This document shows positions 23,424-32,326 of a stretch of 64,000 bases of DNA, piece after piece. Every line of letters starts with the position of its first letter. Position 1 is the stretch's first letter. Source of the DNA: Camelus dromedarius (Eukaryota). Where the stretch lies: positions 11,532,001-11,596,000 of the forward strand of contig NC_087436.1 of NCBI RefSeq assembly GCF_036321535.1, read 5' to 3'. A program made the position numbers and the translations under genes. The notes under the pieces were generated by a model. It was not told the DNA's origin, did no database searches, and worked only from the letters and a program-made list of their open reading frames with translations.

Positions 23424-23593
23424 AACACGGACCTACCATATAGCACAGGGAAATTTATTCGATTTCTTGTAAAGGAGCCACAATGGAAAAGAAACTGAAA
23501 AAATATATATACATAATTTTGCTGTACACCTGAAACTAACACTGTAAATTGACTACACTTCAATTTTAAAAAATAAAGTGAAAAAAAATAAAA
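23424..23593 (+). mobile_element. Short L1 3' end
   Basis: TSD GTATGTTTCTG at 23413-23423 and 23594-23604. L1 terminal motifs and A-tail. Confidence 0.85.
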
Positions 23594-23931
23594 GTATGTT
23601 TCTGGAGGTAAATGTTTTGGTTGATGTACACAATGAATCTTGCCAGTTTGTCCATCCAACGGTATTATTGTGGGCATACTATGTGCAGTACTTTCCTAAG
23701 CCCTGAGAGTATAGCAGAGCTTACATTCCAAGGCAGAGGATAGACAATAAATGAAAAAAAAAATAAGTAAAACATATAGTTTGTCAAATTGTGATAAGAG
23801 TTTCTGGGAAACAGAGATCAGGAAAGGAGTTTAGGGAGTGCTGAGGGCAGAGAGGGTAGCTGCAACTTAAATAGGCTGACAGTATTTCCCCTCTCTGGCA
23901 CAGAAAATGGTTTGTATAATACCCAAGTATA

Positions 23932-24848
23932 TGCAACCAGATTACCACTAGTTATACTAACCATTGTTTTAATTTGTTCTTTGTTTCTAAATTGTTTATG
24001 CTTTGTATGACTTTATTAATGTTACTAGTTGTATTACCTATATTCTATTTTATAAGATTGTAGTCTCTTGCATTTCCCAATGTGTAACTAGGCCTCCGAC
24101 AAGATTGATGAAATAAATAACATTTATAATCCTGCATAAAATAATAATAATAGTGTGATTCTAGGTATAGGAAGAAGCAATATTTCCCGGATCATAATAG
24201 ACTAGTAAGACAGGCGATCCAGAGAACTTTTGGTTATCCATAGGGCCTGATCCAAAAATTAATACCTTGAGAGACATAACAGCAAAATCTTTGCCTGATC
24301 TAGGAATGAGTCTCCCTAGGGCCATGGACAAAATTGGTCATGAATTGTCTCCCAAAATATTGGTCGAATTTAGGACCAAGGGGGAGCACCGTGAACAGAA
24401 AGTACTGTGAGCCATATCAGTAAACAAAGAATGCTGAAGCCATCAAGTCATCAGCCAACTCAGGATGCAGACAAGAAGGCAGCCTGGCCTCTGCAGCCAT
24501 CCCCAGTGGTACCCCCTGAGGGATGTGAAAGGACAGGATACTGGCCCTAGATAGCTAGGTGCTTGTCAAAGGAATGATTTCAATGAGCCCAGACATTTGC
24601 TCCCTCCCATACATAGAAAAGCACTAAATTCTTTAACTTGAGATGTCTGGTTTTCCTTAATTAACAGTAATCCTTTGATGTTCCGACTACCTGGTCTTTG
24701 TTGTAAAGCTCCGATATATCCTGGCTCCTCCCCTACCTCTTTGGAGCAGTCCCTCAGAGCCATCTGAGAGGCTGTCATCCCCGGCTTGACTTGAAGAGGT
24801 TCACGTCCTCAGAAATGTCCGCTGAATAAAACATAACTCTCAAAAGAA
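23932..24848 (+). mobile_element. ERV1 (MER41/MER4-group-like) 3' fragment: internal sequence + PPT + U3-R + A-tail, apparently L1-retroposed
   Basis: PPT AAGGGGGAG at 24378-24386, LTR-like sequence from ~24390, AATAAA at 24825-24830, A-rich tail from 24842, 14-bp TSD AATACCCAAGTATA at 23918-23931 and 24849-24862. Confidence 0.8.
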
Positions 24849-25859
24849 AATACCCAAGTATAACACAGTTCAGATTAGTATAATAAAATAAAATTGGCTT
24901 GAATCATTTTGCTTCAGAAAATACAACTAGGAATATTTTTCTCATGATTTAATTTTAGTTAGCTTTTAACAAGGACTTCAAAATGGAAGCTTAGGTTCAT
25001 TTTTAGTTCAATGAAGAACAGTTCTCATATGAGGCCTGGATTCACTTCTATTTTGTGGGTTGGATTATTACCAAGATCTTAACAGAAGAAATGAAGAAAT
25101 ATGGATGCCTCAGGAATTGATTAACCACTTATATCCTGCACTAAACGTGCTTCTCTGCTTCCCGAAGCTGACTAGTACCAGATTAAGAATGAGAAAGGAT
25201 TTCTTGGCAAAGGATCCTTACTTGCAAAAATAATTCCAAGACTTGGGTTGAGCTTGAATTTTTGGATTCATGTGGAAACTCAAGACTTATCTTTTCACAT
25301 TACCATGTGAACAATTTGAACAAATAATACAGACTCCTAGAGGTTTGGTCTCCAAAAGTCAAGAGTTTAAGAATATTTTTCATCTCTTTCAGCATGGTCC
25401 TTTATTAAAGCATTCCATTGACAGTGCTATACAGAAATACCTCTATTAATGGAAAAGATAGGTTTCAACATCACACTTTTTCATCAAAAATGTTGTGATT
25501 GAAATAATATAGAAGGTGTTGGAATGCATTCTGAGAGGAAAGAGAATACGGGTTAGGGTACGAAGACATTATTTGGCTAAAATAATGCCAAGATCAAGTT
25601 GGTCTGTTGTATTGCAGTGCAATCCACTAATCATTCTAACTGATATTAGATAATTTCTAAGTTTGATTAGGGATGAAGAGAGCACAGTGGGGTCCTGTAG
25701 TTGGTGATGGTGAGAGGTGATAGATGTACTGATACCAAAAGGGAAAAAAGGGAACACTATGGGGAAAAGGAGAAAGGCAAAAAAACCAATTATTTCACAA
25801 TTTAGTTTAGGGTTAGTGCTATTAATAGCTGTGATGGACAAACAGAAAAGTGGGTAGAA

Positions 25860-28900: not shown

Positions 28901-29186
28901 AACTACCCCCATGCACTCATCACTCAGCGTCAAAAATTAATATTTTGTCCATCTTCTTTCTTCTATTCCCTACCCTCCCTTTTTTTTGGTAGAGAATTTT
29001 AAAACAAATCCCAGCAAAGTCGTCCTTTTAATGATCAGATCAAGCTGCTCACAACTTTTCATTGTTTCTCTTCTCAGGAAAAGCCAAATCTTTTTTGACG
29101 GCCTACCAGGCCTATGTGACCTGTCACCGCTTCCCCCACACCACCTCCTCTTACGGTATGCTGTCCTCACTCTGCCTCAGAGACCG

Positions 29187-29368
29187 TACAGGTTCTTAAA
29201 TCTTAGCGGGCACCAGCATGCCCTGGAGGGCTTGTTATAGTTCAGGTTGCTGGGCCTCACCCGCAGAATTTCTGATTCAGCAGATCTGAACTGGGCCTGG
29301 AGAATTCGCATTTCTAACAAGTTCCCAGATGCTACTGCTGTTCAGCGGCCTAACTGGGGAACCATCAG
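29187..29368. mobile_element. MER5A-type hAT DNA transposon
   Basis: TTGCTGGGCCTCACCCGCAGAATTTCTGATTCAG...GAATTCGCATTTCTAACAAGTTCCCAG is the typical MER5A core. Confidence 0.85.
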
Positions 29369-29499
29369 TTTACACTGTACTATCCTGGTTCTTCGACGGC
29401 CAAGAGTCTTTGCACTGCTCTTCCCTCTGCCTGAGCACTCTTTGCATTACTCAAGTTTCGCTTTGTTCCATCTGTTTAAATGACATGGTTTGAGAGGCC

Positions 29500-30650
29500 T
29501 TTCCTGTAACCATTATTTAGCATCCGTCTCCTCGCCCCGGTTATTTTCTATCTTCACGGCAAGCATCGGGTTTGTCGTGTCCAGATGGACAGGTCCGCTG
29601 TCACGGAGACCTGGTTTTGCTCCGCATCCCGTCCAAGCGCCAAGACCTCTCCCCGCAGGTGCACCGAGCGGACCACAGCCTGAGCAGGGAGACCCCGGTC
29701 CCTGATTGGGACCCAGGACCGGCGAGTCATTTCTTCTTGTCTCAGTTTCTCCATCTGTAGAGCAAAGGTCGCGTACCCGCACTCCTTCTCCTCCCTGGGC
29801 TCAGGCTGGGAGAGAACGGAGCGAACGCGCGTGCGGAGCCGGGCAGTCAGTGGACGCTGACCGCCGGAAAGCCGCGCTTTCCGGCAGAACCACGCCCAGC
29901 GTCTCCAGCCCCCGAGTCCCGGAGGGCAGACCCACCCTAAGGAACCCACTCGGCGGCAGCAGGAAGGGGCGGCGCGGGGCGGGGCCTCGAGGGCGCGTCA
30001 CACCCGGAAGTGCCCGCCTGCCGCCCCGCCCCCAGCAGCGCCGGCAGTCGGAGCGCGCCCGCGGAGCGGGGCCGCTGAGCAGGGCTGGCGGAGCTGGGCA
30101 GCCTCGGGCGCCGGTGCTGGTGCGGGTTCAGGCGCGGGCGCGGGTGCAGAGCGGCGGCGGGCGGGCAGGCGCCCGGGCGAATGGGACGCGGCGCTGCGGG
30201 CGGGCGGGGCCGGCGTCCGCGGCTGGAATGGTGCTGGCGGCGGTGGGCGCCCGCGAGCTGAAGCCCGAGAGGAGCCGCCATGGAGACGCCGCCGCGGCCT
30301 CCCGCGTGAGTGAGCGGACGGGTGGCGGGCGGGGCCGCTGCGGCCGGACCCGGCCGGGCGGCGGGCGGGGCGTCGCCGCGCGGGGTGTGGGGAGGGTCCT
30401 CCGCCGGCGAGCTGGAGCCCCGGGAGGGCCGAGCATCCGCGGGAAGGAGACGCGGGATGCGTGCGGGGCCGTCGGAAAAGGAAGCTGCAAAGTACAGACG
30501 CCGGTGGTGTGGAGAGGAATTCCTCTCAGCTTACCTGCTTCTCCGAATTCCTAGCAAAATTCTGTCAGAGAAGCTTGCACATCACTCTGAACGGGCCGCG
30601 GCTGTTTAGGGCATATGACCTCTTTTACCTGGCACTGCAGAAAATCGTGT
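29500..30650. promoter_or_regulatory. KLHL2: CpG island and promoter of KLHL2
   Basis: Very high GC and CpG density around exon 1. GC boxes GGGGCGGGGC (29976-29985) and GCCCCGCCCC (30023-30032), CRE half-site CGTCA (29996-30000), ETS/GABP site CCGGAAGTG (30004-30012). No TATA box seen. Confidence 0.92.
30280..30305 (+). CDS. KLHL2: Kelch-like protein 2 (Mayven), coding exon 1: METPPRPPA
   Basis: Optimal Kozak GCCGCCATGG and donor GC|GTGAGT (phase 2). Joins exon 2 in frame. Matches the recalled human N-terminus METPPLPPACTKQ. Confidence 0.95.
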
Positions 30651-32326
30651 TCGGAAATCACAGCATCTTCTGTTTCCCGGGCACCCTGGGCGAATTAGTA
30701 GTGTACGACATGCCAGGCACAGGTGTCTTTTTCCTTGGTACCTAAATACAGTCGAGACCACCTGCAACAAAATTGCTTCCAGAAATAACAACTGAGCGAT
30801 TATGTGGAAGACATTGAAGATACTGCATTATTCAGTACAAGATTCTTTTTTAGCATTTTGTTAAAAGTCGACTCTAAATCCCCAGGAATTTTGGACATTT
30901 CAATTTTGATTTGCTTTCCTTAGTTTAACCTTTATGAAGGAAGAACGCTTTGAATCTGACTTTTGAAACCGCAAATATCGTTCTGAAGAATGGTGTACCT
31001 CTTCCTGACAGCTTATTTTTGGAGCTTTATCGTTTTCCGCTTAGATTTGACCAGCTTGATTCCATGGCATTTGTACCACACCAGCCTTTTGTGGTTATTT
31101 GGCAGAATGCCAGCCGAAATATAAATATTGGGCTTAGGCTGAATAATTTTTTGGTGTTGAGTCCTTTTAGGAGAGCTAATAGGATTCTGGAACTACAATT
31201 TCTAAAAGTGCCTTGCAGAAATTTTAGCTCGAGTGGAACAGATCATGGGGATCTAAGGAGTACATAGGACTCTTGAATTTACCCCCCTGGACTGGAGGAA
31301 CAAGGGCTCAGTTCGGTTATGTTTTTCAGCAGGTTCAGGAAGGATCCTGAACGTCAAGGAAACGCGATGGTGGATTGTTCACTTCAGCAGTGGGAGCACA
31401 GCATCAGCACATGAGTTCTGTCTAGGCTCAGAGGCATGCAAGGCAGGAAACGTTACCTGTCCGTAGACAACTGGAAGTATTGAGAATATCCCACATAGGA
31501 TGTTATCTGTCGTAAACCTGCCCCCTTCATACCAGTTCCCTGCCACCCCCCCGTCTTTTTTTTTTTTTTTTTTTTTACTTCTGGAGCAGAGGGAACTAAA
31601 GGAAAGAAAAGGGGGACATTAGAATGCAGGTGAAAAAAAGGGTGTGGAAAAGCAGGCTCTGGAGGGAAAGAGTAGAGATGTAGAAAATGATTTAAATATA
31701 AATAATTAAAAATAAAATAAATGGGTGTATGCAAATATCGATAAACTGAATCTAGACCAGATCAACTCATAATTTTGGTGTCCAGCACAGGTCTTTGGTA
31801 CTGAGACGCCCTCAGTAGTGCTAGAACAGTGAGAGGCTGAGATGTAGTGGAAAGCCTGAATGCCAACAGGGATGGCAGAATAGTTAAAGAAAACAAAACA
31901 AAAAAAAAAAACAACTTTCAATCATGGGTGGCTAAATTTGGAGAAATTTTGTTTCTGTTCATTTAATAATAAATACAAATAAGTTTATTTGCATTTGGTC
32001 TATCTAGGACTAGCCCTAATCCTAGAACTCGTGATAGTGTTTTTTGCCTTTCTGTACATAAGAAATAGTTTTTCTTCCCATCCTTTTGTCTGTTTGCCTC
32101 CACTCTAATAACTTGTTTTTCCTTCCACGCCAAATCATGGGTGCCAGATTTGAGCGCTGGCAGTTCTTGGGGAGGGGAGCTTTTTCGAGTCTCACTGTGC
32201 TGGAACTAACTGGGCTAGGACAGAGGCCAGTGGCAGTTATTGAGAGGGATCAGTTTTTCATAAGGTTAGATTTTTAGCCTGAGCTTTAAGGCAAAGAAGA
32301 TTGACTTGGACTTAAAAGTGCCTTGG

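Follow-up and report, generated by a model that had tools for sequence, protein, structure and literature searches.

The 911-bp endogenous retrovirus (ERV) insert in the 64-kb window (the whole stretch of camelid DNA analysed here, whose positions serve as coordinates throughout) is, we conclude with high confidence, an ERV processed pseudogene made by L1. This insert, the window copy, lacks a U5, lies between the two halves of a long target-site duplication (TSD), and has many sister copies in the genome that share its 3' end and vary in their 5' ends.

Structure of the window copy

All parts of the window copy read on the forward strand. An exact 14-bp direct repeat, identified by exact-repeat search and by an anchored TSD scan, abuts both ends of the insert (23918..23931 on the left and 24849..24862 on the right), so that the repeat reported in the sequence-only reading is real, and it has no further copy in the window even at two mismatches. 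Next to its left copy lie 458 bp (~460 bp had been estimated) of the 3' end of an ERV internal region (23932..24389), which has no open frame and no Pfam match and is 5'-truncated, as paralogues L001-L003 extend further upstream. The polypurine tract (24378..24386) is the same tract that stands directly before the 3' LTR in paralogues. The U3 (24390..24742) runs from the position at which paralogous LTRs start to the common 5' end of the R-only copies described below; this segment had already been called LTR-like, and the paralogue comparison corrects its start to 24390. A TATA-box position (24713..24719), whose first base is unlike that of most paralogues, lies 30 nt before the putative start site. 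The R region (24743..24842) extends from that start, as marked by the shared start of the R-only copies, to the poly(A) site, and a ~38-nt hairpin is predicted (without shuffle control) at its 5' end. The AATAAA polyadenylation signal (24825..24830) and the CA at 24841-24842 are, like the purine tract, exactly as originally described. In place of the 32-33-nt U5 of the paralogues, sequence and paralogue alignment show a short A-tail remnant (24844..24848). The tail first quoted, AAAAGAAAA, runs into the right copy of the repeat; the tail proper is 24842-24848, and because its first two A's are also present in paralogous LTRs, only ~5 nt of it are clearly added.

The 3' end of the window copy is not simply the end of the family's LTR. 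Its homology to the paralogues extends from the first base after the left repeat to 24842-24843, and paralogous LTRs run 32-33 nt beyond the position of 24842 through a U/GU-rich U5 that ends in CA. Two arrangements that had been named as fatal to the L1 interpretation, an LTR consensus that itself ends at ~24842 and a U5 that continues beyond 24862, thus do not apply, since homology ends at the poly(A) site just where the paralogues enter U5. As listed in the accessible text of PMC5016936, the hallmarks of HERV-W processed pseudogenes are a U3-R end, a tail, a TT/AAAA-type site and a 5-15-bp TSD. The 3' LTR of the window copy is U3-R, cut at the R/U5 boundary; the added A's in it have counterparts of up to ~27 nt in its sister copies; its TSD is an exact 14 bp; and its 5' end is truncated in the internal region, with no U3-bearing 5' LTR.

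The significance of the 14-bp repeat can be estimated as follows: when 14-mers of the window were drawn at random, 4 of 200,000 draws gave one that occurred in a randomly chosen 44-nt stretch, and the anchored TSD scan gives the window copy a score of 11.9, where 900 mismatched-pair controls have a median of 3.4 and a 99th percentile of 9.2. There are counterpoints to an L1 origin, in that one of the 900 control pairs equalled this score (maximum 11.9), the added tail is short, and the target site agrees with the TT/AAAA insertion motif only in part (4/6 positions). An unanchored TSD scan was replaced by the anchored one because A-rich and L1-tail matches of up to 21 made its control useless.

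No second copy of the family was found elsewhere in the 64-kb window. A hydrophobic stretch in the internal part was considered as an env remnant and rejected, as it has neither an open frame nor a Pfam match. The window also contains dense interspersed repeats of 68-86% mutual identity, at 23424-23577 (~350 bp left of the insert) and at many places across 800-63900, which we take to be mostly L1 3' ends.

The parental ERV family

When the genome (a 2.31-Gb, 171-contig assembly) was searched with the 911-bp insert, 40 of 4880 candidates were scored and yielded 44 matches. The 20 best-scoring loci were compared as paralogues, and 18 further loci, mostly LTR-only matches, were left out. Among the 40 scored candidates the best match to the window copy is 83% (90% is the best over the R region), and none of the 20 best paralogues is a close parent provirus, the nearest having a K2P distance of 0.141 (range 0.141-0.176). 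Several paralogues are ~7-kb proviruses with two LTRs of ~475 nt. Proviruses L014 and L007 have 4-bp TSDs (those of L018 and L009 are not readable), and downstream of the 5' LTR lies a primer site complementary to the 3' ends of tRNA-Arg genes in the same genome, four of which are clustered within 1.7 kb at L064 (G000:C16:32360105-32363126). The family proviruses therefore have the features of class I ERVs (TG...CA LTRs, polypurine tract, tRNA primer site and 4-bp TSD), and the ERV1-type assignment made in the sequence-only reading is borne out by the last two of these. The MER41/MER4 label attached to it is tentative; the R and U5 ends of this family would resemble those of MER41.

The three sense frames of L014, of L018 and of the internal part of the window copy gave no Pfam match (0/9), and the longest stop-free frames in two proviruses, 165 and 126 amino acids, are both antisense. 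As there are no long frames and no Pfam matches in the sense frames of two proviruses, the family looks like a non-coding, non-autonomous ERV1-type family. In some of its proviruses the internal region contains nested LTRs that belong to this family or a related one (L001:3275-5212, L002:2389-2887 and L006:4564-5144). L009, L010, L015 and L016, spread over three contigs (C22, C23 and twice C19), are a single provirus whose flanks are shared as well, and so represent a segmental duplication and not four insertions.

The distances between 5' and 3' LTRs are 0.046-0.169 (K2P, 7 pairs). The mammalian substitution rate is 0.22% per million years. When the nearest distance of the window copy, 0.141, is halved and divided by this rate or by the 0.13% per million years used in the accessible part of PMC5016936, the window copy would be roughly 30-55 million years old, an upper bound if it is a late copy of a lost or unscored parent.

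A-tailed sister copies

The sequence-only reading treated the window copy as a singleton and suggested that copies with the same 3' structure be counted genome-wide. That count shows that it is one of ~50. Exact patterns for the two kinds of LTR end found 17 A-tailed and 545 U5 ends in the genome, and at up to three mismatches the numbers rise to 47 and 2109, so that A-tailed ends are ~2%; reversed-pattern controls gave 0 matches. Among the 20 best internal-bearing paralogues, six have an A-tail at the poly(A) site of the window copy or a few bases beyond it, and the other 14 retain U5 (four of the 14 being the one duplicated provirus). All 47 pattern matches and three of the 20 paralogues were combined into a set of 50 A-tailed copies, which includes the window copy. 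Their 5' ends range from <50 nt to ~1800 nt. An anchored TSD scoring above the 95th percentile of the 900 mismatched pairs was found in 23/50 copies, where 2-3 are expected; of the 27 below this threshold, three have a 5' end that was not reached or resolved, one is a complete LTR, and the others are short or diverged. The left edge is TT|A in 13 of the 23 TSD-passing copies (counted by eye).

These observations bear on two other origins for the window copy. It could be an ordinary provirus that lost its 5' part and its U5 in two later deletions, the 14-bp repeat and the A-run being coincidental; the family is old and many of its copies are broken or interrupted, and the short tail and imperfect target site of the window copy would fit. 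Such a history would, however, require a breakpoint exactly at the poly(A) site as well as an exact 14-bp repeat at both ends (the 4-in-200,000 chance above), and this 3' end is found in 47 copies and a TSD in 23/50, so we consider it extremely unlikely. Equally hard to credit is the capture of a cDNA from retroviral reverse transcription, or of the RNA itself, at a double-strand break without L1 endonuclease. The non-consensus target site of the window copy is in its favour, but the sister copies favour TT|A sites (13/23), retroviral cDNA terminates in U5 and not at R plus A's, and captures in break repair usually come with deletions and not with clean 14-bp TSDs.

The mechanism first proposed, L1 retroposition of a 5'-truncated U3-R-poly(A) unit with a long TSD, is thus supported by the missing U5, the 14-bp TSD and the sister copies, and the events may be pictured as follows: A non-autonomous, non-coding ERV1-type provirus would have been transcribed in the germ line by Pol II, and its RNA cleaved ~12 nt after AATAAA, with the U/GU-rich U5 assisting, and given its poly(A) tail where R ends in the 3' LTR. 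L1 ORF2p would then have taken this RNA in trans and cut one strand of A/T-rich DNA 5 kb upstream of a BTB gene. In target-primed reverse transcription, priming on the tail, 911 nt would have been copied before synthesis stopped, and repair would have left the 14-bp duplication. The expected product is a processed ERV pseudogene composed of an internal remnant, polypurine tract, U3, R and A-tail, with no U5.

Several members of the A-tailed set depart from the common form. The A-tail of L005, L011, L013 and L057 starts a few bases into U5 and not at the CA (for L057, 113 nt upstream of its signal were available for comparison); because these tails start inside U5, the poly(A) site appears to have minor downstream variants. 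L046 matched the A-tail pattern but is a complete LTR, and L045 is doubtful. L008 (G000:C37:31414400-31424100) has an A-tailed 3' end on a whole provirus with a complete 5'-side U3, and L051 (G000:C2:112304650-112305300) has one on a whole U3-R. Both lie beside L1-like sequence, and no TSD was found around either in the flanking DNA examined; they are possibly retroposed read-through RNAs from an upstream promoter, or recombinants. The A-tailed L033 (G000:C13:24804080-24805580) has a flanking duplication that exceeds the 26-nt limit of the scan and is offset from the 5' junction, unlike the usual TSD.

R-only copies

In 15 of the 50 A-tailed copies homology starts within ~3 nt of the base that matches 24743, which is 30 nt after the TATA box. 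The 30 nt upstream of this start match U3 at 5-12 positions in these 15 R-only copies, that is, they have no U3; among the 32 copies reaching further upstream, 29 match at 24-30 positions and the other three at 10, 15 and 19. In nine of the 15 the TSD scores above the threshold and ends no more than a few bases from the start. When the seven copies with internal sequence, the three with an unreached or unresolved 5' end, and L046, L051 and L045 are left out, 15 of the 37 LTR-internal 5' ends fall within one 4-nt window; the p value of this clustering is of order 1e-18 under a uniform model and 1e-12 under a much more 3'-weighted one. The R-only copies are 75-96 nt long and show the three R-length classes that are also found among the longer copies. 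Their start is thus tied to sequence and not to length, and several different LTRs should have been their sources. Immediately before the start, G stands in 10/15 and a pyrimidine in 0/15 of them, compared with 2/32 and 30/32, respectively, in U3-bearing copies (Fisher p 3e-5 for G). The available text of PMC3287187 traces an extra untemplated 5' G in full-length inserts made by L1 to the RNA cap. The extra G can also be templated, since G occurs at that position in ordinary U3-bearing LTRs.

These properties suggest that the R-only copies are probably full-length copies of 75-96-nt capped, polyadenylated RNAs. L1 would then also have copied short RNAs whose cap site and poly(A) site lie in one and the same LTR. 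The AATAAA in R follows the start by only 60-80 nt, so that any active LTR, whether solo, 5' or 3', can terminate its transcript immediately and produce an R-only RNA, while an RNA that reads through the provirus would end in the 3' LTR and give rise to copies like the window copy.

Are the R-only copies instead 5'-truncated copies of longer RNAs, on which synthesis stopped at a hotspot such as the hairpin with which R begins or a microhomology between the G and the target? The predicted hairpin begins at that very base, L021, L050 and L059 have a TSD whose own 3' end is G or GG, and a G is found there in ordinary LTRs as well. Moreover, a strict 5'-anchored pattern for copies starting with R or R-U5 gave no matches, and a looser one gave 13, three of them already known; nine of the ten new ones are U3-bearing LTRs and one is a chance match, with no new R-start copy and no R-U5-starting retrocopy among them. 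Against a hotspot stand the common start 30 nt after the TATA box, which is fixed to the sequence despite lengths of 75 to 96 nt, and the difference in preceding base between R-only and U3-bearing copies given above; a stalled enzyme should, in addition, stop at the 3' foot of the hairpin and not at its 5' end. We regard a hotspot as unlikely, and retain the view that the R-only copies represent whole short RNAs.

A broader proposal can be put forward tentatively, and might prove right or wrong with nearly equal ease: that family LTRs of at least three R-length classes made 75-96-nt capped, polyadenylated RNAs in the germ line, that L1 retroposed these about as often as all longer LTR-truncated RNAs, and that the R-only copies form an undescribed SINE-like class, which probably sits unnoticed, filed as LTR fragments, in other short-U5 ERV1 families of mammals. 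If this is true, R-only copies fix the start and poly(A) sites of an ancient LTR to the base, mapping the start site without an RNA experiment; such copies would be evidence that in the germ line LTRs both start and polyadenylate transcripts within their own length, and HERV-W would no longer stand alone as an ERV whose RNA is captured by L1.

The neighbouring BTB gene

The first coding exon of a KLHL2/3-type BTB gene (30280..30305, forward strand; Pfam and PDB matches) lies 5.4 kb downstream of the insert and is covered by a CpG island (~29000-31000). Exons of this gene are found at 30280, ~43000 and 57466; the Pfam BTB match has an E value of 3.8e-14, and the best PDB match is KLHL3. From the peptide we take the gene to be KLHL2 rather than KLHL3.

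That reading also had the U3 acting as an enhancer or promoter of KLHL2, which is unsupported by our analysis. The window copy is in sense 5.4 kb before the ATG, and the insert is probably widespread in the population: in 14 runs from two organisms, 76-81% of the words were present from a stretch of which the flanks make up only 57%, although the best of the 14 may be the assembly's own source. Bovine MER41_BT copies, moreover, are IFNG-inducible enhancers according to the accessible text of PMC9435751. On the other side, the absence of a perfect GAS motif from the U3 is confirmed on both strands, none of the seven paralogous 3' LTRs examined has one either (0/7), the TATA box differs in its first base from that of most paralogues, and with >2100 LTR ends in the genome some will be near promoters by chance. 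Co-option as an enhancer or upstream promoter of KLHL2 is very unlikely in our view, as is the accompanying idea that loss of the U/GU-rich U5 element would weaken the poly(A) signal and permit read-through; the window copy is most likely inert, and this locus is of little import unless regulatory activity is shown. The missing GAS is not decisive for MER41 membership, since only 1071 of 5491 bovine copies have one (PMC9435751, accessible text).

Comparison with known systems

An L1-made ERV pseudogene is of a known kind, that of HERV-W, found here in a new lineage and family; the R-only sister class is apparently undescribed. The available part of PMC5537654 presents HERV-W as unique among human ERV groups in its mobilisation by L1, with determinants that it describes as unknown; New World monkey ERV-W-like elements are described as being without such processed copies (PMC6995185, in the part available). 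Many human inserts with TSD and poly(A) map to ERVs in the accessible text of PMC11727581, which hints that L1 mobilisation of ERV RNA is wider than HERV-W. Neither a non-primate ERV processed pseudogene nor an R-only class appears in the available sections of PMC6407205, PMC4862087, PMC11359688 and PMC11727581, and searches of openly accessible full texts returned no report of camelid ERV retrocopies or of the R-only class. A separate family in another order that behaves like HERV-W is a second case for comparison, and with it ideas on what determines an L1 substrate (germ-line expression, a non-coding RNA not bound for packaging, a short U5) become testable.

The HERV-W processed pseudogenes, as characterised in the accessible portions of PMC5016936 and PMC5537654, resemble the window copy in their U3-R 3' end, poly(A) tail, 5-15-bp TSD and class I ERV origin, and an arginine primer site, that of the camelid family, is the second commonest type in HERV-W. 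Their TT/AAAA-type site compares with the 4/6 agreement in the window copy and TT|A in 13/23 TSD-passing copies. HERV-W is a primate group, whereas the camelid family is non-primate and non-coding and has a very short U5. A-tailed copies make up 135/213 of HERV-W, but ~2% of LTR ends and 6/20 of the best internal-bearing copies here. R-U5 5' ends, a HERV-W-type pseudogene form, were not found in the camelid family, and R-only copies, which are about one third of its A-tailed copies, are not mentioned for HERV-W in those portions of the two papers. Membership in HERV-W itself (LTR17/HERV17, with gag, pol and env) was considered and rejected: the LTR is ~475 nt compared with 780 nt for LTR17, and no coding remnants were detected.

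MER41_BT and MER41_Vpa are likewise cetartiodactyl ERV1-type LTR families with thousands of copies, and L1-made copies are not mentioned for them in the text available of PMC9435751 and bioRxiv 10.1101/2021.10.01.462810. Many MER41_BT copies have a GAS, and 0/8 LTRs checked in the camelid family do. The alpaca non-autonomous short ERV1 clusters in the accessible part of PMC8605555 are also without recognisable coding domains and are proposed to depend on other elements; they are likened to the camelid family by their description, which is of two-LTR elements only. Gene retrocopies and SVA, Pol II RNAs mobilised by L1, share with the camelid copies poly(A), TSD, 5' truncation and the untemplated 5' G (PMC3287187, in the text available), while the substrate in the camelid family is an LTR transcript, and its R-only products, since they carry no promoter, should not amplify further on their own.
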